Part shown: piece by piece, positions 18,578 to 27,833 of the stretch
Numbering within the stretch: position 1 is the first letter of the stretch
Layout of the letters: each line of letters starts with the position of its first letter
Assembly (NCBI GenBank): GCA_002685255.1
Contig: NYWU01000016.1
Coordinates: 115,043 to 179,042 of the forward strand
Length of the DNA stretch: 64,000 nt
Direction of reading: 5' to 3'
Origin: Idiomarinaceae bacterium
Lineage (GTDB): Bacteria; Pseudomonadota; Gammaproteobacteria; Enterobacterales; Alteromonadaceae
Translations under genes and position numbers: made by a program
Notes under the pieces: model-generated
The model's database searches: none
What the model saw: only the letters and a program-made list of their open reading frames with translations
Told to the model about the DNA's origin: nothing

Positions 18578-19080
18578 TCGCGCCGACCTGTGATCATTGG
18601 GCGTATTAATTGAATGCGCCCCCACCATTGTATAAAGATAACAGCAACGACGTGCAAACAGACTAAAGCAAACAAAGTGTGCGCACCCAGCTCGTGTAAA
18701 TACTCTAGCGCACTACTACCATAAAAAGCGTCCACTTCCTCAAGCATAAATCCTGTCGTCGCTTGATACGCCAATAACACCATCATCAGAAAGATAACGA
18801 CTCCACCTAGAGGATTGTGCCCGGCGTCTCGAGGTAACTGACGTTGTTTTAAATGTGTGAAGTGAGTTTTAATGCGCGAGGGCGTTGGAAGAAAGTCACT
18901 AAACCTCGCTCGTTGAGGCCCTAAAAAGCCCCAGACAACGCGGAAAATAAGCCAAGCAAATGCGTAATAACCAGCTATTTGATGGGCTGTTTCACCCGGC
19001 TCGAGTAAGAAATAGTTCAGTACAAAAACGAGCGCTATGCTCCAATGAAACAAACGAATACCGATGTCCCAAATTTGCAT
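18574..19080 (-). CDS. Cytochrome b (b561/Ni-hydrogenase-type) membrane protein
   Basis: WD..IRLFHW, GHNPLGG, His-bearing TM helices. Confidence 0.8.
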   Translation of the reverse strand: MQIWDIGIRLFHWSIALVFVLNYFLLEPGETAHQIAGYYAFAWLIFRVVWGFLGPQRARFSDFLPTPSRIKTHFTHLKQRQLPRDAGHNPLGGVVIFLMMVLLAYQATTGFMLEEVDAFYGSSALEYLHELGAHTLFALVCLHVVAVIFIQWWGRIQLIRPMITGRRD

Positions 19081-19095
19081 AACGCTCTCTGTACC

Positions 19096-19383
19096 TTATT
19101 CCATTTCTTGTTTAACGATGCTGCCATCAACCGGATTAAAGTAAATTTCTACTTTTTGGTCGTCAGCGTTAAAGCCATAGATCTCATAACACTGACCTTC
19201 GGTGACTTTAAACTCGTTAATTTTATAACCTTGCTCTTCCAGGCCTTGCTGAAACTGAGCTTGGTCCATCCATTCGCTCTGTGGCGCAGAAGTACACTGA
19301 GTATGTGACTCTTCTGCACTACAGGCACTTAATAATAAAGCGCCTGATGCGATAGCGATTGAAGCTAACAATGTTGCTCTCAT
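19096..19383 (-). CDS. PepSY-domain lipoprotein
   Basis: lipobox LLSAC; CYEIYG...KVEIYFNPVDG. Confidence 0.8.
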   Translation of the reverse strand: MRATLLASIAIASGALLLSACSAEESHTQCTSAPQSEWMDQAQFQQGLEEQGYKINEFKVTEGQCYEIYGFNADDQKVEIYFNPVDGSIVKQEME

Positions 19384-19391
19384 TACGCCTC

Positions 19392-21569
19392 CTATTCGTT
19401 TGGTAGCGACTGATAACCCATGTGGTATAGGGTAAAGCCGAAAATATCCGAATACTGCTCAATGGTCTTCGATACAGGCGTGCCTGCACCATGTCCCGCG
19501 TTTGTTTCGATACGGATCAGCTGCGGTGCATTACCACCTGCTTTATCCTGCAACTCTGCGGCAAACTTAAATGAGTGCGCAGGTACCACACGGTCATCGT
19601 GATCACCTGTAGTAATCAATGTTGCTGGATACTCCACACCTTGTTCTACGTTATGAACGGGCGAGTAGTTCAGCAGGTATTGGAACATCTCTTTGCTGTC
19701 CTCTGCTGTACCATAGTCGTAGGCCCAACCTGCGCCAGCAGTGAAGGTATGATAACGCAACATATCCAAAACGCCGACGGCAGGTAGAGCAACCGCAAAC
19801 AAGTCAGGACGTTGTGTCATCGTTGCCCCAACCAACAAGCCACCATTGGAACCGCCACGGATAGCAAGCTTTTCTTTTGACGTGTAATCTTCATCAATCA
19901 AGTACTCTGCGGCAGCAATAAAGTCGTCAAAAACGTTCTGCTTTTGCATCTTCGTACCGGCGTCGTGCCAAGCCTTACCATACTCACCACCACCGCGCAG
20001 GTTAGCAACGGCATAAACACCGCCCATTTCTAACCACGCCGCATTTGCGATGCTGAACGAAGGCGTTAAGCTGATATTAAAGCCACCATAGCCATATAGA
20101 ATCGTTGGATTACTACCGTCGAGTTCCGTACCTTTTTTATAGGTAATGATCATGGGCACCTGAGTACCGTCTTTAGACGTGTAGAACACCTGCTTCGACT
20201 CATAGTTACTGGAGTCGAAATCCGCGCCGGACTCTTCGTAAACGGTTGATTCGCCCGTATCTGGATTCAAAGCATAAATGGTTTGTGGCGTGCTGTAATT
20301 AGTGAATGAGTAGTACAACGTTTCAGCGTCGTCTTTACCGCCAAAACCACCTGCACTCCCGACACCCGGTAAGTCAATTTGACGAATTTCTTTACCTTGG
20401 TAGTCAAATTGCTTCACTTGCGAGACCGCGTCCACCATGTATTCCGCGAAAATGTAGCCTGCCCCGGTGGTTGGGTTGAGTACGTGCTCAGTCTCAGGGA
20501 TCAAGTCGCTCCAATTCGCTTCTTGTGGCGCTCCAGCATCAACGACTACGACACGGCCGTTAGGCGCCTCACGATTGGTCTCGATAAAGAGTTTACCTTC
20601 TTCACTGTCTAACACCGACACATCTGAGTCATAGTCGTCAACCACAGTGACCAGAGGCGCATCCTCTTTGCTCAAGTCTTTGATAAAGAGTTTATTGCCT
20701 GATGTTGAGTTAGCGGCAGAGATCACCAAAAACTGATTGTCGTCTGTCACATAGCCACCTACATAGCGGTGCTTCTGCGCGTCCGTACCACCAAATACCA
20801 ATTCGTCATCGCTCTGTGATGTGCCTAACTCGTGGTAATACAGCTTATGTTGGTCAGTTTTTGCCGAGAGCTCACTACCCTCCGGCTTATCATAGCTTGA
20901 ATAGTAGAACCCTTCGTTACCTTTCCAAGAGATACCACTGAACTTCACATCAACCAATGGATCCTCAAGACGCTCTTTCGTTTCAGCATCAATGACAATA
21001 ATCTTACGCCAGTCACTCCCGCCCTCAGAAATCGAATAAGCTGCTAGTTTTCCATCTTCACTAAAGGTCAGTTGTGCTAATGACGTTGTTCCATCCTCGC
21101 TGAAAGTATTGGGATCGAGGAACACTTCTTCTTCATCGCTATCGTTCTTCTTACGATAGACCACGTATTGGTTCTGCAAACCATCGTTCTTGTAGTAGTA
21201 GGTGTAGTCACCCTCCTTAAATGGTGCACTGACTTTCTCGTAATTCCACAACTCCGTCAGGCGCTTTTCAATTTTCTCGCGGAACGGGATTTTTTCTAAA
21301 TGATTGAAGGTAACCTCATTTTGCGCTTCTACCCACGCTTCGGTTTCGGCACTTCGATCATCTTCTAACCAACGATACGGGTCTTTCACTTTCGTATCGA
21401 AATAAGTATCGACGGTATCCCCTTTGCGTGTTTCTGGGTACTTCACTTGCATCGACTCCGCTTGTTGCTTTTCCACTTGCTGAGTTTCAGCTGTTTGCGA
21501 CGAATCGTTTTGTGCTGGAGAGCACGCGACAAGTACGCTAACAGCGACAGCACTGAGTACGTATTTCAT
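19392..21569 (-). CDS. Prolyl oligopeptidase (S9A), lipoprotein
   Basis: lipobox LVAC; [22 protein letters not shown]. Confidence 0.95.
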
Positions 21570-21684
21570 AGATAGTTCCTTTGTTGTTATTTTGTAACTA
21601 TTAAGTTAACAGACTGTCCTGAATTGCGAAACTTTGATAGAACAGTATTTCGACCGAATATGCCTAACTTGAGATAAAGCCAAA

Positions 21685-23586
21685 ATGCAGAATGAATCGA
21701 CCTTAAAAGACTTACCGCAATTACTCTGCGGCCCCTTAGTTCGGCATGTTGAGTCTGATCATTTTTATTTATGGCTAGTCACGAAAAGTGACCATGTTCC
21801 TCAGGTGGAATGTAGTATCGATGAGACGCCGGTCGATATCAAACAAACAGACCGAGTCATTGCTATTGGCAAGCATGCTTATGTGATATTGATAAGGGTC
21901 GAGCCTACTCAGCCGCTTGCCCACAACCAACGAATCGGTTACGACCTAGTTTGGCCCACCGAAAACGAGCGTTTATCAGACCAACACGACTTCTTGCTTT
22001 ATTCAGGGCAAACATGTCCGCAGTTTGTTTATAAAGAGACGATTGACCAGCTGCTTCATGGTTCATGCCGGCGACCTCATCACCCCGCCCGTGATGGGCT
22101 ATCGCGTGCTGATAAAGAGATTGAGGCACACCTCGATCGCCCCTCGAAACGCGCGGGCATTCTTCTGCACACAGGGGATCAAGTCTACGTTGATGATGTC
22201 GCAGGCCCAATGTTGGCATCCATACACGCGTTAATTGATGTACTAAAGCTATCTGATGAGACCTTGCCCGATGATCAACTGAATCAACTGGATGACTTAA
22301 TTCAACACCCAAATGGCTATTATAGCCGCCAATCTTTGCTACCGGATACGAAAGCCAACGAACCCCTGACTGAGAAATTTTTTGGTGGCGTGAAAAAACC
22401 GATTTTTACCTCAGCACATGCGGGTAACCATCTGATCACGGCCGCTGAAGTTTTCGCCATGTATATCCTCTGTTGGTCACCCACGCCGTGGCGTGTAATC
22501 AAAGTGCAACAGCCGTCGCAGTTAAACCAAGAACAACAAAAACGCTTTACCGATGAACAGGCAGCCATTGATGAATTCGTTAAAACATTGCCACAAGCAG
22601 CGCGTGCCATGGCCCACAGCATCAATTACATGATGTTTGACGATCACGACGTAACCGACGACTGGAATCTATCCGCCGCCTGGGAGCTTACGGCCTATCA
22701 CCATCCTTTTTCAAAACGTATTGTCGGCAACGCGCTGTGGGGCTATTTAATTTTTCAAGGTTGGGGCAACCAGCCCGAAGTGGTAACCCCCCTTATGGAT
22801 GCCACTGCACAATTACTTGAAAAGCCATTAACTGAGCAACCAGAAGAGCACGATCAACTTATCGAGCAACTGCTGGACTGGGAGCAGTGGCAGTTCAGCC
22901 TTAATACGCGACCCAAAATTCTTGTGCTCGATACCCGCACCCGTCGCTGGCGAAGTGAGCGTAGTATCCGCAAACCATCGGGATTAATGGATTGGGAATC
23001 TTTAATGGAGATGCAGCACCAAATTATGGATGAAGAGGCTGTGATTTTAGTGTCCCCTGCACCGATATTTGGCGTGAAACTAATAGAAGCGATCCAAACG
23101 GTGTTTACCGCGTTGGGTAAACCGCTGGTTGTTGATGCTGAAAACTGGATGGCGCACAACGGTGCTGCCAATACCCTACTCAATATCTTTTCCCATAAAC
23201 GCACACCGCAAAAGTTCACGATTCTGTCGGGTGACGTGCACTATTCATTTGTATACGACGTGCAGTTACGGCGCGAAAAAGCCGAATCATCGATATGGCA
23301 AATTACCAGTAGTGGCGTTAAAAACGAGTTCCCGAATACATTATTAGAGTGGCTCGACCGTATGAATCGGTGGCTTTACTCCCCGCGTTCACCTCTCAAC
23401 TGGCTAACTAAACGACGCCGTTTCGCCGTGTCGCCACGGCTGCCGACCGGCCGTGATGCCGGTGAGCGACTCTGGAATCACTCCGGTATCGGCTGGGTCA
23501 GTTTTGATCAGGACGGTGCTCCGTCGCGTATCCGACAATTAAATGCAGACGGTAACGAAACCGAGTTTCTAAAGGAGGAGTCATGA
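21685..23586 (+). CDS. PhoD-like (alkaline phosphatase D family) metallophosphatase without signal peptide
   Basis: HGSCRRPH, GDQVYVDD, FDDHDVTDDWN, LDTRT, SGDVHYS. Confidence 0.8.
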   Translation: MQNESTLKDLPQLLCGPLVRHVESDHFYLWLVTKSDHVPQVECSIDETPVDIKQTDRVIAIGKHAYVILIRVEPTQPLAHNQRIGYDLVWPTENERLSDQHDFLLYSGQTCPQFVYKETIDQLLHGSCRRPHHPARDGLSRADKEIEAHLDRPSKRAGILLHTGDQVYVDDVAGPMLASIHALIDVLKLSDETLPDDQLNQLDDLIQHPNGYYSRQSLLPDTKANEPLTEKFFGGVKKPIFTSAHAGNHLITAAEVFAMYILCWSPTPWRVIKVQQPSQLNQEQQKRFTDEQAAIDEFVKTLPQAARAMAHSINYMMFDDHDVTDDWNLSAAWELTAYHHPFSKRIVGNALWGYLIFQGWGNQPEVVTPLMDATAQLLEKPLTEQPEEHDQLIEQLLDWEQWQFSLNTRPKILVLDTRTRRWRSERSIRKPSGLMDWESLMEMQHQIMDEEAVILVSPAPIFGVKLIEAIQTVFTALGKPLVVDAENWMAHNGAANTLLNIFSHKRTPQKFTILSGDVHYSFVYDVQLRREKAESSIWQITSSGVKNEFPNTLLEWLDRMNRWLYSPRSPLNWLTKRRRFAVSPRLPTGRDAGERLWNHSGIGWVSFDQDGAPSRIRQLNADGNETEFLKEES

Positions 23587-24548
23587 GTCAACCTAAGGCC
23601 GCAGAATGGCAACGTTTCGAACGATACAGCGATAAGCAGACTCATTATCAAGTTGCAATTATTACCGATGAGGACCAATCGTCTAAAATTCAATTAGAAG
23701 ATGGGCAATCGGCTTGGCACTCACGTTTACGGATTGATGAAGTGGCTCGTCAAGTCGACTCAGCTACAGGTGATGTGCAATATCATTTCCATGACCTTCC
23801 TCCAGACGATACCCATGAATATTCTTTAGTTTCACTGATCGCTGAAGGTGATCGGGGGGCGGAGTTCTCTGAACTCGTTCAGTTTGGTAAGCACTTACTT
23901 ACTTTTGATGATCGAACGGGACTTGTATGTGAGGTCCGCAACTTTAGTCAGTTAGTTCCTCGTCAGATATTGATGACTGGCAGTGGAGACGAAGAGTTCA
24001 AGGGCTTTAAAAGCGAGTGGGCTACCTTAAAAGACAATCACCTCTACATCGGAAGTCATGGTAAACGTCCACAAGAAGAGTGGATTAAGGTGATTGGTCG
24101 TCACTACGGTTTGCAAAGTGTCAACTGGCACGAAAACTATCAAAAAATACGCGAAGCAGCAGGAGTCTCTGGCGAAGGTTATATTATTCACGAGGCGGCG
24201 GAGTGGCACCCCGTTCTAAAAAAATGGCTATTTTTTCCACGTAAGTTATCCAACCAACCGTTTGACCCCGAACATGATGAGCGTGAATGTGGTAACAACC
24301 GATTGTTCATTTGCAGTGAGGACTTTTCCCATATTCAAGTCATTGAGGTCGGTCAACGTCATCCTGAGCGCGGCGTATCTTCTATCAAACTTGTTCCCGG
24401 CCGACAGAACGAGTGTATCGGGCTAAAAAGCGTGGAAATTGGCGACCGTACCGAAACCTATTTTTTCGCGTTTGATCTAACTGGCCGCGTGCTGCAACAA
24501 GACACGTTAATTGGCCACTACAAATGCGAAGGTATAGAGATTCTATAG
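23583..24548 (+). CDS. Calcium-activated nucleotidase / Cimex-type apyrase (CANT1 family)
   Basis: AIITDED, AEGDRGAEFSEL, FDDRTG, GFKSEW, YIIHEA, FFPRK, GVSSIK, LKSVE resemble CANT1 motifs (recalled); ATGA overlap with the PhoD-like gene. Confidence 0.8.
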   Translation: MSQPKAAEWQRFERYSDKQTHYQVAIITDEDQSSKIQLEDGQSAWHSRLRIDEVARQVDSATGDVQYHFHDLPPDDTHEYSLVSLIAEGDRGAEFSELVQFGKHLLTFDDRTGLVCEVRNFSQLVPRQILMTGSGDEEFKGFKSEWATLKDNHLYIGSHGKRPQEEWIKVIGRHYGLQSVNWHENYQKIREAAGVSGEGYIIHEAAEWHPVLKKWLFFPRKLSNQPFDPEHDERECGNNRLFICSEDFSHIQVIEVGQRHPERGVSSIKLVPGRQNECIGLKSVEIGDRTETYFFAFDLTGRVLQQDTLIGHYKCEGIEIL

Positions 24549-24558
24549 TATTTTATCG

Positions 24559-26787
24559 TTAGTCGCGCTTATCCTTATTATTGAATCGCGCTAAAGTTTC
24601 GCCGTAAACACACTCAACATGGCGAGTAAACGCCTCTACAGAGTAATCCGCAGCAAACTTAAGCGCCTGTTTACCGAGTCGCTCACGCAGCTCATCGTCA
24701 TTGATGAGCTTAACCACTTGCTCACTCCAACGGTCTTGTTTTGCAGGCGTTTTATAGCCGTTAATATCATCTTCGACGACATCTTCTATACCGCTCGAGC
24801 GCACAGCAACAACCGGCATACCCGCAGCCATCGCCTCAAGGATAACCATGCCTTGGGTTTCAGACTGCGAGGCAAACACAAATAAGTCACCCAACGCATA
24901 CCATTCCGGCATATCCTTAGGTGGAACGGCACCCACTAATTGAACACAATCAGTCAGTCCATTGTCATCAATCCGCTGTTGCAGATAGTCGCGCTGATGC
25001 CCTTCACCGATTTGCAGCAAGCGCACAGGCTTATTAGCACGCTTACGGATATCGACCATCGCGTCTATCATGAAGTCGATATTTTTCTCATCAGAGAGAC
25101 GCGCCACACTCACCAAAATACATTCGTCGTCACTCATGGACTGTGATGTTTTGATTGAATCAATCTTATCGCGGCTGACTTTTTGGAAGCGCTGATACTC
25201 AATGCCTGTTGGTTGCACATAGATAGGTCGCGTTACACCAATCATTCGTAAATACTCTTCAACCGACTGGGTCGGCACAATGACACTATCGCATTTGTTG
25301 GCAAAGCGGCGCACCATAATATGCGCGATGATATTCCGAAATAAGTTACCCGGCAGCATGACATAATGAGCATAGTGTTCTAGCCGTGTGTGGTAGGTAT
25401 AAACCACGGGCACTTTCAAACGCTTGGCCATGTAAACACCGAGCGAGCCTATCCAAAACGGATGATGCACATGAATAATATCAGGCTTGAGTGCTTTTAC
25501 CTTTTGTCTAACTACACGTGAAAATAAATGCGCGAACTGGAATTCACTGTTTTCACCAAATGAGAACCAATTAGGCATACGAATAACATGCGCTTCATCG
25601 GTACGGGCATTCGCGTATTTGGGTGCCACGATCGAGATTTTATGTCCGAGATGCTTCAGGCCCACCCTTAAGCGCTCGATAGAAATAGGTACACCGCCGA
25701 TAAACGGTAAATAGTTGTTGGTGAACATCACGATGTTCAGTGGCTTACTTAACCATGGTTTTGGATCGATATCATAATCAGGATAATAAGACTTACCCAC
25801 GAACACCATTTGATACAGCTTTACGCTCACAAGTAGCAGTGCGCTTACGATAAGAATAAAGTTGATGTAGCCTGCGTAGAGCAACGAGTAAATAAAGAAC
25901 CAGAGGCTTTCGAGTATTTTGAGCACCGGATGTTGACCGACTTCAAGCTCATTCACATTCACCTCGATGCCGGCATCTGTTACATGCACCATCAAATAGT
26001 GATAGAAGCTATTATCGTGATTGAGCACTAAGCCACCTGCGCCACCTGTAATATAAAATGGCGTGCCTTTGTACATCACCTTATCGTAAATCGATAGATG
26101 ACTGGAAAATACCGCGTCAACCGAGTGCTGCTCAACCAGTTGCAATAGCCCCGAGCGAAAGCCCAGCGGCTGTAAAAAGTCATCATCCGTCGCAAACAAG
26201 GTCTCGCTCTTAGGCTGCACAGGCGGGTGAGATACAAAAATAAAGCGGTGCTTTGACTCATCCGCGCGTAAAATATCCGTCAGCCAACGCAGTTGCCACT
26301 GCCATGGCGTTTTACCTGTGCTATCCAAAAAGATAAAACGCGTGCTGTCTGCTACAAAGCTAAAAAAGTGAGGGCCGAAATGTTCGTAGTAGCGAAAGCT
26401 ACCAAATTCGTCGTATTCATTATCACCAAAAGTGAGCAAATAGGGTTTATTCAAATGCGACAGACTGCCATACAAGGCACGATATTTATCTTCGCCACCA
26501 CCACTCACCGCATTACCAGCGGATACAACAAAGTCGATATCAGCTTGGTTTAATTCAGGAATGATCCGCTGCTCAAAGATACCAATCGAATTGTTAATAT
26601 TGCCCAGTACCGCAAACTGATAGTCTGAATCACCTTGCAAACGACTACTGATACTCGCCACCTGATCGCTATGCACCACTTCAAATTCAGGCTGGCTAAA
26701 ATTCAAATAAATCTTATAGCCAATAACCAACGCTACAATGGCGACATTGACGTAAAACAGTAACTTCAGCCATTTATTTTTATTCAT
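24559..26787 (-). CDS. Fusion: TM - degenerate calcineurin-like phosphoesterase domain - TM - GT4 glycosyltransferase (DAG glycosyltransferase-like)
   Basis: GT4 motifs FTNNYLPFIGGV, HVHHPF, YTYHT, SETQGMVILEAMAAG; N-terminal domain GNINN / GNAV / GDNE / SHPP / SSH. Confidence 0.8.
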   Translation of the reverse strand: MNKNKWLKLLFYVNVAIVALVIGYKIYLNFSQPEFEVVHSDQVASISSRLQGDSDYQFAVLGNINNSIGIFEQRIIPELNQADIDFVVSAGNAVSGGGEDKYRALYGSLSHLNKPYLLTFGDNEYDEFGSFRYYEHFGPHFFSFVADSTRFIFLDSTGKTPWQWQLRWLTDILRADESKHRFIFVSHPPVQPKSETLFATDDDFLQPLGFRSGLLQLVEQHSVDAVFSSHLSIYDKVMYKGTPFYITGGAGGLVLNHDNSFYHYLMVHVTDAGIEVNVNELEVGQHPVLKILESLWFFIYSLLYAGYINFILIVSALLLVSVKLYQMVFVGKSYYPDYDIDPKPWLSKPLNIVMFTNNYLPFIGGVPISIERLRVGLKHLGHKISIVAPKYANARTDEAHVIRMPNWFSFGENSEFQFAHLFSRVVRQKVKALKPDIIHVHHPFWIGSLGVYMAKRLKVPVVYTYHTRLEHYAHYVMLPGNLFRNIIAHIMVRRFANKCDSVIVPTQSVEEYLRMIGVTRPIYVQPTGIEYQRFQKVSRDKIDSIKTSQSMSDDECILVSVARLSDEKNIDFMIDAMVDIRKRANKPVRLLQIGEGHQRDYLQQRIDDNGLTDCVQLVGAVPPKDMPEWYALGDLFVFASQSETQGMVILEAMAAGMPVVAVRSSGIEDVVEDDINGYKTPAKQDRWSEQVVKLINDDELRERLGKQALKFAADYSVEAFTRHVECVYGETLARFNNKDKRD

Positions 26788-27833
26788 GCGTCCTTCCTGC
26801 GACTTGCCAACATCTCATACTGCAACGTCACCATGCCAATCAGCATGCCCAAATAAATCGTGATAAAGCGCCAGCTAAAGATAATTAATAATAAATGATT
26901 ACTTTGCACAAACTGCGCAAAAAATGAACCGAAAACCCCCTCAGAAACACCTGATGCTCCCGGGGTTGGTGCAAAATACATGACAAAGGTGGTCACCACC
27001 AAAAGACCAACGGACTGCCAATAAGGCACCGTATAGTCGAGTCCCCATAATAAAATAGCGGGGAAACTGAAGAGGCTTAATAAAAAGACAACCGTGAAAA
27101 ACACAGAACCCCATACATAGAGCGGCTTGCCCTTACAATAATCTCGAAAACTGTCGGCAAAGCGGAGCATTTCACGTTTGCTCCAAAAGCCAAGCACACG
27201 ACATTTATGTGCACTCATTAAATTGACTGTCGTGAGCAATCTAAGCACGCCATTGATCGGCGCAATCAGCCAATGGGTTTTGAACAGCACCATCGCAAAA
27301 AATGCTAAGTAAGCGGTGACCAATACAGCAAGCGAGCCGCCAATGCCTTTAGATAGCGTTGAGTCAGAGAGCGCAGGCAGTGTCAGCAATAACACCGGCG
27401 TGAATGTGAAGATAAAAATCACCGCCAACACAGTCCGAATAGTGGTTGCTGCCGTCGCACGTCCCACCGGCACACCCTGCTTCGCCAAATACCACACTTG
27501 CGCAAAGCCTCCACCGGTCGCCATCGGTGTGACATTGGAAAAAAACATATTAATAAAAATCAGTCGCGTCATTGGCGCTGCCGGCACCCGATACCCCAGT
27601 GCTCTTAAAGTAAAGTAGAGGCGCAATCCGTCACTGGCGAAATAGACAATAAGTAACGCCAGTAAACTGAGCAGCACCGTAGGTTGCAGCAACTGACTAT
27701 CAAATTGAAGCTCAGCACCTTGGAAAAACTGCTGAATGCTGTAAAAACCGAGCGCCGTTAATACAACAAAGAGGCCACTGAAAATCAGCAGCCTCTTCCA
27801 CGCGATAGGTTGTTTCTCTGTATTGATAGGCAT
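26784..27833 (-). CDS. LPG-synthase transmembrane-domain (UPF0104) flippase-like protein
   Basis: multi-TM; TPMATGGG, PTPGASGVSE, WRFITIY; overlaps the GT start by 4 nt. Confidence 0.8.
   Translation of the reverse strand: MPINTEKQPIAWKRLLIFSGLFVVLTALGFYSIQQFFQGAELQFDSQLLQPTVLLSLLALLIVYFASDGLRLYFTLRALGYRVPAAPMTRLIFINMFFSNVTPMATGGGFAQVWYLAKQGVPVGRATAATTIRTVLAVIFIFTFTPVLLLTLPALSDSTLSKGIGGSLAVLVTAYLAFFAMVLFKTHWLIAPINGVLRLLTTVNLMSAHKCRVLGFWSKREMLRFADSFRDYCKGKPLYVWGSVFFTVVFLLSLFSFPAILLWGLDYTVPYWQSVGLLVVTTFVMYFAPTPGASGVSEGVFGSFFAQFVQSNHLLLIIFSWRFITIYLGMLIGMVTLQYEMLASRRKDA

Follow-up and report, generated by a model that had tools for sequence, protein, structure and literature searches.

Apyrases of the CANT1 type have been studied as uridine diphosphatases (UDPases) of the Golgi and the endoplasmic reticulum (ER), in connection with Desbuquois dysplasia, and as salivary anti-clotting enzymes. 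The salivary apyrases of Cimex and of sand flies are Ca2+-dependent propellers that hydrolyse adenosine tri- and diphosphate (ATP and ADP). The family of these salivary enzymes is named in earlier work (PMC1434747, PMC3358328), and human CANT1 prefers uridine diphosphate (UDP), followed by GDP and UTP, in an assay with 4 mM CaCl2 (PMC7487677). Our literature searches on bacterial CANT1 or on the Pfam Apyrase family (PF06079) found no paper on a bacterial member. Here we analysed a 64,000-nucleotide stretch of the genome of an Idiomarinaceae bacterium (contig NYWU01000016.1, positions 115,043 to 179,042; called the window below), in which an open reading frame (ORF) of 321 amino acids (aa) overlaps the gene of a PhoD-like metallophosphoesterase. 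We found that this ORF encodes a true CANT1/Cimex-type apyrase, as judged by its profile match, its fold and its residues conserved across kingdoms, and that the gene is an accessory one, gained and lost by natural strains.

The match of the ORF to PF06079 is far beyond chance: it scores 270 bits against a cut-off of 27 (E 3.2e-80) and covers the whole domain (profile positions 2-290 of 291). A whole-genome search found one copy in the host genome, which is 2.77 Mb long and 98.5% complete and contains the window in its contig C8. The only sequence matches in the PDB are the human CANT1/SCAN chains (1s18/2h2n, E 6e-51). We built an AlphaFold2 (AF2) model of the apyrase from 33 homologues, with a mean predicted local distance difference test (pLDDT) of 90 and a predicted template-modelling score (pTM) of 0.90. 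The top four Foldseek matches of this model in the PDB are 2h2u and 1s18 with template-modelling (TM) scores 0.82-0.84 and E 4e-30, and the next one is 25 orders of magnitude weaker (E 1e-5). Superposed on 2H2U/1S18, the model gives a TM score of 0.83 and a root-mean-square deviation of 2.6 A over 313 columns. The original prediction had recognised the family from eight motifs (AIITDED, RGAEFSEL, DDRTG, GFKSEW, YIIHEA, FFPRK, GVSSIK and LKSVE); all of them are present in that order in the 321-aa translation, and the profile and fold comparisons that it proposed agree with the assignment, as do the residues that follow.

We aligned 34 bacterial sequences with 107 representatives from a wider search, all eukaryotic where the source record could be read, and found 37 positions conserved in the bacterial and the mostly eukaryotic rows alike. 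Those kept in at least 95% of the bacterial and at least 85% of the mostly eukaryotic rows are D29, D31, R91, E94, S96, D109-D110, K143, E145, H203-E204, P219-R220, S266, E285, K314 and E316. Five of them, S96, E145, E204, S266 and E316, we take to be the blade positions that hold the central Ca2+ in the SCAN structure, i.e. the S of RGxExS, the E of GFKxEW, the E of IHE, the S of GxSS and the E of EGIE. The bacterial apyrases deviate at seven positions that are otherwise conserved among the mostly eukaryotic representatives. The catalytic propeller is intact, and it is predicted to hydrolyse nucleoside di- and triphosphates (NDPs and NTPs), a reaction that depends on Ca2+ in characterised members. 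Two distant relatives have other architectures: P0250 (778 aa) matches the apyrase family in four stretches, as a tandem or multi-domain form, and P0327 (2160 aa) carries the apyrase domain at its C-terminus.

The bacterial members of the family form a compact and rare clade. A word-indexed protein search with the apyrase returned 311 relatives. The best 120 of them, which we examined, are 60-70% identical to the window's copy, this copy itself aside, and come from Marinobacter, Idiomarina, Halomonas, Halopseudomonas/Stutzerimonas, Hydrocarboniclastica and Aquisalimonas. Genome contigs added Cellvibrio and the halophilic cyanobacteria Halothece and Geitlerinema at 53-56% identity. Across the clade the identity to the window's copy is 47-98%, and the length in named genomes is 314-321 aa. 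NCBI labels these proteins mostly as 'hypothetical protein', UniRef and JGI as 'soluble calcium-activated nucleotidase 1'. Among further genomes sampled, the gene turned up in 3 of 400 Gammaproteobacteria, 1 of 120 members of the host's GTDB family and none of 300 cyanobacteria. Matches in Bacteroidetes and Clostridia (L012-L014) span about 30 residues each and were rejected as spurious.

We also searched 1.84 billion cluster representatives exhaustively, where the bacterial clade is represented by one full-length sequence (409 bits) and a few short fragments. Below it the scores drop to 210 bits at no more than 42% identity, and the next-ranked named matches are protists, i.e. Pygsuia, Anaeramoeba, MMETSP transcripts, Entamoeba, Arcella and Vermistella; among the representatives with no name, the nearest are from short metagenome contigs. 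All our trees are quick searches with support from the Shimodaira-Hasegawa-like approximate likelihood ratio test (SH-aLRT) only. In the unrooted maximum-likelihood apyrase tree of 141 rows, the 34 bacterial rows make up one side of a branch with SH-aLRT 100, whose stem measures 1.29 changes per site; the group nearest to them is Entamoeba (support 82). The choice between a bacterial clade and a recent eukaryotic transfer had been left to a phylogeny, and the tree returned a single bacterial clan with protists nearest to it. The family is widely distributed in eukaryotes, and its bacterial distribution is narrow and patchy, so that one eukaryote-to-bacterium transfer is the most economical reading of its spread. 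The data fit such a transfer, probably from a protist, followed by spread among bacteria of saline habitats; its direction is only inferred because the tree is unrooted.

The partner in the window, a 633-aa protein with 97% identity to its counterpart in Idiomarina baltica, is far more widespread. It has over 5000 homologues, mostly of 620-660 aa and named 'alkaline phosphatase D family protein', and is present in 72 of the 120 further genomes sampled from the host's GTDB family. The Pfam PhoD profile (PF09423) gives 25.4 bits, below the cut-off of 27, and aligns with residues 481-573 only; precomputed tables assign PF09423 to the homologues with the mark 'faint', and DUF7800 matches the N-terminus with E 7e-4. 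Invariant in the family are C128, D165 (with Y168), D319, D320, D325, D326 and D517 (with H519). The metal ligands of Bacillus subtilis PhoD are C180, D207, D265, D266, N271, N272 and D436 (PMC4223295), and the invariant residues follow the same order, with six residues from the DD pair to the second pair in both proteins, in a mapping made by motif order and not by alignment. In the AF2 model (pLDDT 80) these motifs are carried on strands. Foldseek matched the model to Ig-like domains in the PDB (residues ~12-100) and returned no match to the catalytic domain, and PDB sequence searches with the single protein and with the family profile found nothing relevant, while a language-model search of the ESM Atlas placed the protein among PhoD clusters. 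Neither this protein nor the apyrase is covered by an NCBIfam model. The name PhoD-like, as used in the original prediction, is therefore kept here on motif order and database names and is weaker than had been stated, given the score below the Pfam cut-off.

The association of the two genes recurs well beyond the window. We examined 59 apyrase loci from the window, genome contigs, metagenome contigs and two assemblies, and found a PhoD-like gene within 8 kb of the apyrase in at least 17 of them, many of the contigs being short. In Idiomarina the PhoD-like gene precedes the apyrase and overlaps or nearly overlaps it; in the window the ATG of the apyrase (23583-23585) lies in an ATGA (23583-23586) shared with the TGA of the PhoD-like ORF, as originally described, and the two genes of this Idiomarina are predicted to be translationally coupled. 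In Halopseudomonas and Cellvibrio the apyrase comes first. Marinobacter-like contigs have the two genes in divergent orientation with a common intergenic region of 127-276 bp, and in two further contigs they are 3-5 kb apart. These arrangements map to separate, well-supported branches of the apyrase tree. With at least four independent arrangements chance adjacency is very unlikely, so we regard the association as functional. The linkage is real and at the same time facultative: at the loci of Marinobacter subterrani, Stutzerimonas and P. profundi the PhoD-like gene is not linked to the apyrase, and the latter two genomes have it elsewhere. The PhoD-like gene alone has variable neighbours and no conserved one, and we rejected the idea of a conserved third partner.

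The three sampled Idiomarina genomes have either both genes or neither, and the Idiomarina PhoD-like copies nest with those of Marinobacter, Cellvibrio and Halopseudomonas (support 99) instead of those of other members of their own GTDB family. Together these two observations suggest that the Idiomarina pair was acquired as a unit. A third gene is also seen near the apyrase. In 13 loci a protein of ~215 aa with a BOF (YgiW-like OB fold)/DUF5666 domain is encoded ~200 bp downstream of it in the same direction (e.g. L015:9166-9828 and L032:4988-5632), nearly always on one Marinobacter-like apyrase branch, and in P. profundi the gene lies upstream and is divergent.

Neither protein of the window appears to be exported by a known signal. 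We judged this by inspection and by a crude hydrophobic-segment test; both ORFs are maximal, each beginning at the first start after an in-frame stop. Inspection found no hydrophobic or twin-arginine leader at the N-terminus of either protein, and no Sec, twin-arginine translocation (Tat) or lipoprotein leader among ~120 apyrase homologues. The crude test found a hydrophobic N-terminal segment in none of the 34 bacterial apyrases, whereas 60 of the 102 mostly eukaryotic representatives have one. The bacterial N-termini are short and hydrophilic and share a ..RLERY.. motif ~10 residues ahead of AIITDED; the window's apyrase begins ~20 residues ahead of the first blade, and its ..RLERY.. stretch is a conserved helix. 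Its C-terminus is the last propeller strand and leaves no room for a C-terminal signal. For the PhoD-like protein no Tat or Sec leader was found in the N-terminus or in the family consensus; residues 13-20 are modelled as a strand within the N-terminal domain (pLDDT 96), and Cys 15 is not conserved in the consensus. The earlier statement that both proteins are leaderless agrees with all of this.

Our favoured explanation, to which we give about an even chance, is an accessory and predicted cytoplasmic nucleotide phosphohydrolase that often acts with a PhoD-like phosphoesterase to salvage phosphate or nucleotides. The apyrase would stay in the cytoplasm as a soluble nucleoside di- and triphosphatase and split terminal phosphates off NDPs, and possibly NTPs, to yield nucleoside monophosphate (NMP) and inorganic phosphate. 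The linked PhoD-like enzyme would take the remaining phosphoester, either NMP or another mono- or diester. The two together would make a small nucleotide-to-phosphate salvage module for marine or haline bacteria under phosphorus stress, and the neighbouring glycosyltransferase family 4 (GT4) gene would lie outside it.

Several points weigh against this explanation. The CANT1 enzymes characterised so far depend on Ca2+ levels that greatly exceed the free Ca2+ in a bacterial cytoplasm, and a cytoplasmic NDPase or NTPase without regulation would be costly to the cell. The characterised PhoD enzymes, which use Fe3+ with two Ca2+ and are exported through Tat (PMC4223295), conflict with a cytoplasmic partner. 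With this Ca2+ need, and with both families being extracytoplasmic, a role in the cytoplasm requires a different metal affinity or regulation. We see three possible ways out of the conflict, i.e. an altered metal affinity, an unrecognised export route, or latency until Ca2+ enters the cell. The membership of the partner in the PhoD family, which draws on a sub-threshold hidden Markov model match and on motif order, is itself provisional. Most apyrase loci are unlinked to a PhoD-like gene, which makes the partnership optional, and five apyrase-bearing genomes have no PhoD-like homologue at all; the pairing of the original prediction stands as a recurrent one and not as an obligate one. Complex prediction for the two proteins gave an ipSAE of 0.00 in three runs with no interface, which neither supports a physical complex nor speaks against one. 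Upstream of the pair (21570..21684, + strand) there is no match to the sigma-70 consensus, and no convincing Pho box was seen by eye in this region or in the Marinobacter-like divergent intergenic regions.

An alternative hypothesis, which we consider unlikely, places both enzymes outside the cytoplasm, reached by unrecognised export, hitch-hiking, vesicles or lysis, where they would obtain phosphate from nucleotides and phosphoesters dissolved in Ca2+-rich sea water as a bacterial counterpart of the ecto-apyrase/5'-nucleotidase cascade. In both families every characterised member depends on Ca2+ and is extracytoplasmic (PMC4223295; PMC7487677), and nearly all hosts are marine or halophilic, e.g. 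Idiomarina, Marinobacter, Halomonas, Halopseudomonas, Aquisalimonas and Halothece. This hypothesis has to contend with the lack of leaders in ~120 apyrase homologues and in the PhoD-like consensus and with the C-terminus described above, and no secretion genes recur in the neighbourhoods examined.

Latency could also be the function itself. The apyrase might be a Ca2+-gated emergency enzyme, silent at resting Ca2+, that degrades the nucleotide pools upon influx in a stress or abortive-infection response. The residues that we take to be the Ca2+ ligands of the family are conserved in a protein with no leader, and the gene is accessory, strain-variable and horizontally mobile and lies at a variable site, all of which would suit such a role. 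The neighbourhoods, however, hold housekeeping, transport or iron genes and not defence islands, no sensor or regulator partner is present, and neither the apyrase nor the PhoD-like protein has a PADLOC match at E <= 0.01. The idea is purely inferential, and we hold it to be quite improbable. Of equally small probability is the extended version, in which the leaderless pair is a latent cytoplasmic module and a Ca2+ influx through envelope breach, phage lysis or osmotic shock collapses the nucleotide pools or frees phosphate; if true, this would add to bacteria an as yet undescribed kind of nucleotide-depletion system, triggered by Ca2+. We rejected a defence-system assignment for the locus, the GT4 fusion protein next to the pair being likewise without a PADLOC match at this threshold.

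The features of the locus are listed in Table 1.

Table 1. Features of the apyrase locus, in positions of the window.
Feature	Coordinates	Strand	Remarks
Prolyl oligopeptidase (S9)	19392..21569	-	Left flank of insertion site, context only; divergent from PhoD-like gene
115-bp intergenic region, oligopeptidase / PhoD-like gene	21570..21684	.	Presumed promoter region of the pair
PhoD-like metallophosphoesterase, 633 aa, leaderless	21685..23586	+	Ig-like/DUF7800 N-terminal domain, then catalytic domain with large helical inserts
Shine-Dalgarno AGGAGGAG for apyrase	23573..23580	+	Within final codons of PhoD-like gene
CANT1/Cimex-type apyrase, 321 aa, leaderless	23583..24548	+	Five-bladed beta-propeller nucleotidase
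10-bp spacer, apyrase / convergent GT4 gene	24549..24558	.	Right-hand boundary of natural apyrase presence/absence polymorphism
Calcineurin-like + transmembrane + GT4 protein, 742 aa	24559..26787	-	Context only; glycolipid-synthase-like GT4 domain; last operon gene

The convergent 742-aa gene carries a calcineurin-like domain (Metallophos E 2.6e-5, a weak match), transmembrane segments and a GT4/GT1 domain, the GT4 domain being most like monoglucosyl-diacylglycerol synthases. It is the last gene of an operon ordered ZIP-DgkA-SDR-LPG_synthase_TM-GT4. The fusion has over 1000 homologues at E <= 1e-50, in Halomonas, Marinobacter, Marinimicrobium, Alteromonas, Haliea and some Desulfobacterota. The stops of this gene and the apyrase do face each other across 10 bp (24549-24558), as had been reported, and from this proximity the original prediction had proposed that the apyrase removes the UDP made by the GT4 enzyme, as in the Golgi, while the PhoD-like enzyme recycles the phosphate.

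We consider this proposal very improbable, although several facts are in keeping with it. Human CANT1 prefers UDP, and the operon resembles a glycolipid module for phosphorus stress. The apyrase is convergent to the GT4 fusion in all Idiomarina loci and again in two Pseudidiomarina-like contigs (L051 and L061), where the L061 copy is partial and the L051 copy belongs to the Cellvibrio-type branch, different from the Idiomarina copies. The L051 apyrase thus points to two separate arrivals at one spot, and we read the spot as a hot spot at the 3' end of the GT4 operon within one bacterial family, possibly with a weak functional link. We observed in addition that the GT4 protein of L051 has a perfect match (100% identity) in a record labelled Rheinheimera soli and is 85% identical to Pseudidiomarina proteins; the labelled record may come from a mis-assigned or contaminated assembly.

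The arguments against a UDP-clearing role are more numerous. The apyrase is encoded on the strand opposite to that of the GT4 gene. The gap between the oligopeptidase and the GT4 gene is 60 bp with nothing between in one Idiomarina genome (G519, locus L023), and 5 kb in another (G478, locus L022), filled with the unrelated genes of DUF3429, two photolyase-family proteins and an aromatic amino-acid lyase. This gap is hence a variable cargo site in Idiomarina, which holds the PhoD-like/apyrase pair in the window. A GT4 neighbour is present in 10 of the 59 apyrase loci, all of them Idiomarina or Pseudidiomarina-like, and the other 49 have none; it was not found at the Marinobacter, Halomonas, Stutzerimonas and cyanobacterial loci. 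Where Marinobacter and Halomonas genomes have both genes, these are far apart or on separate contigs, e.g. RE428_13730 and RE428_37360 in M. nanhaiticus. Neighbourhood co-occurrence holds for the PhoD-like gene and, in the case of GT4, only within the Idiomarinaceae. In the cytoplasm, nucleoside-diphosphate kinase re-phosphorylates UDP, so that the antiporter argument made for the Golgi does not carry over. Given the variable gap, the limited synteny and the existence of apyrase-less and PhoD-less strains, the GT4 gene appears not to be part of the apyrase/PhoD-like module.

The apyrase-less strains were seen in marine RNA-library contigs. In runs X1, X2 and X4, contigs join 23573 or 23581 straight to 24558 with 12-20 other letters between; both flanks are 100% identical to the window, the PhoD-like gene and the GT4 stop region are kept, and the replacement letters supply the PhoD-like gene with its own TAG stop. 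In run X1 the apyrase-less form has the higher assembler depth. The apyrase is thus a strain-level presence/absence polymorphism within one species. The PhoD-like gene can be lost as well. A 455-kb metagenome contig has a clean internal deletion of ~1.68 kb in it (L027:7625-8000 compared with L003:6097-7944), leaving ~110 bp of the 5' end and ~70 bp of the 3' end, and the contig encodes the same apyrase protein as I. aquatica SN-14, with no difference between the two. We found no meaningful direct or inverted repeats flanking 21570-24558 and no integrase at the boundaries, and the guanine-plus-cytosine content is not anomalous.

Such patchiness, with natural strains that have lost either gene, could also be expected of a functionless passenger of horizontal transfer that decays neutrally. 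Against this, the ratio of nonsynonymous to synonymous substitution rates (dN/dS) of the apyrase is 0.016 compared with I. fontislapidosi, whose protein is 91% identical, and 0.16 compared with a 98%-identical metagenome contig, and that of the PhoD-like gene is 0.046. The apyrase is under strong purifying selection. In its alignment 91 columns are invariant over 33 sequences from two phyla, and no frameshifts or stops were found in the genome matches searched. The selection data largely refute a neutral passenger, and we give it next to no chance.

Evidence for expression is weak, in that pieces of both genes occur at low depth in marine RNA-library contigs, where DNA carry-over is possible. 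The region 21570..21684 shares short blocks with I. fontislapidosi and I. aquatica, and no Rfam family was found in 19000-27000. In the divergent intergenic regions of five Marinobacter-like loci (L032, L056, L059, L064 and L066) we observed a conserved block, ..GTTTCCA.AA.GA.CAC..AATCC.TTACCCTTTT.., which is unlike a Pho box and could be a shared operator.

We believe that this clade matters in several ways. A compact and leaderless group of enzymes, probably derived from protists and moved between Gammaproteobacteria and halophilic cyanobacteria, would be a clean case of eukaryote-to-bacterium enzyme transfer, and a small soluble propeller (~320 aa with no anchor) should be useful for the chemistry of the family. 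Its pairing with the PhoD-like protein poses the question of how Ca2+-dependent, extracytoplasmic families work inside a bacterial cell and whether they have a role in the marine phosphorus economy. As a practical correction, the story of a 'bacterial Golgi-UDPase' is not supported.

The closest characterised system is human CANT1/SCAN-1 (1S18, 1S1D, 2H2N and 2H2U), which belongs to the same Pfam family, is 36% identical and has the same five-bladed propeller; every motif block is matched, including the P-R of FxPR. Human CANT1 carries a membrane anchor or signal at its N-terminus and resides in the ER/Golgi or outside the cell, while the bacterial apyrase is leaderless, has the ..RLERY.. helix of its own and differs at the seven otherwise conserved positions. 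Most of the mostly eukaryotic representatives likewise have N-terminal extensions with a hydrophobic segment, which the bacterial apyrases lack. The Cimex and sand-fly apyrases are of the same family, but they are secreted anti-haemostatics of blood feeders and have nothing in common with a marine bacterium in ecology or context. The protist apyrases (Entamoeba, Arcella, Vermistella, Pygsuia and Anaeramoeba) are nearest by both score and tree at ~40-42% identity, and the long stem separates them from the bacterial clan. Another eukaryote-type apyrase in a bacterium, attributed to horizontal transfer, is the ecto-NTPDase Lpg1905 of Legionella pneumophila. Lpg1905 has the unrelated GDA1/CD39 fold, is secreted and serves virulence, whereas the apyrase described here is leaderless and found in free-living marine bacteria. 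The partner resembles B. subtilis PhoD (2YEQ; PMC4223295) in the order of Cys, GDxxY, DD, D/N-D/N six residues on and GDxH, and differs from it by the missing Tat signal, by ~130 extra residues of helical inserts and by its sub-cut-off Pfam score. Overall, the family membership of the apyrase is established by every structural test and some members are already labelled automatically in the databases; what is new with respect to the known family is the domain of life, the loss of the leader, the bacterial N-terminal helix and the partnership with the PhoD-like protein.

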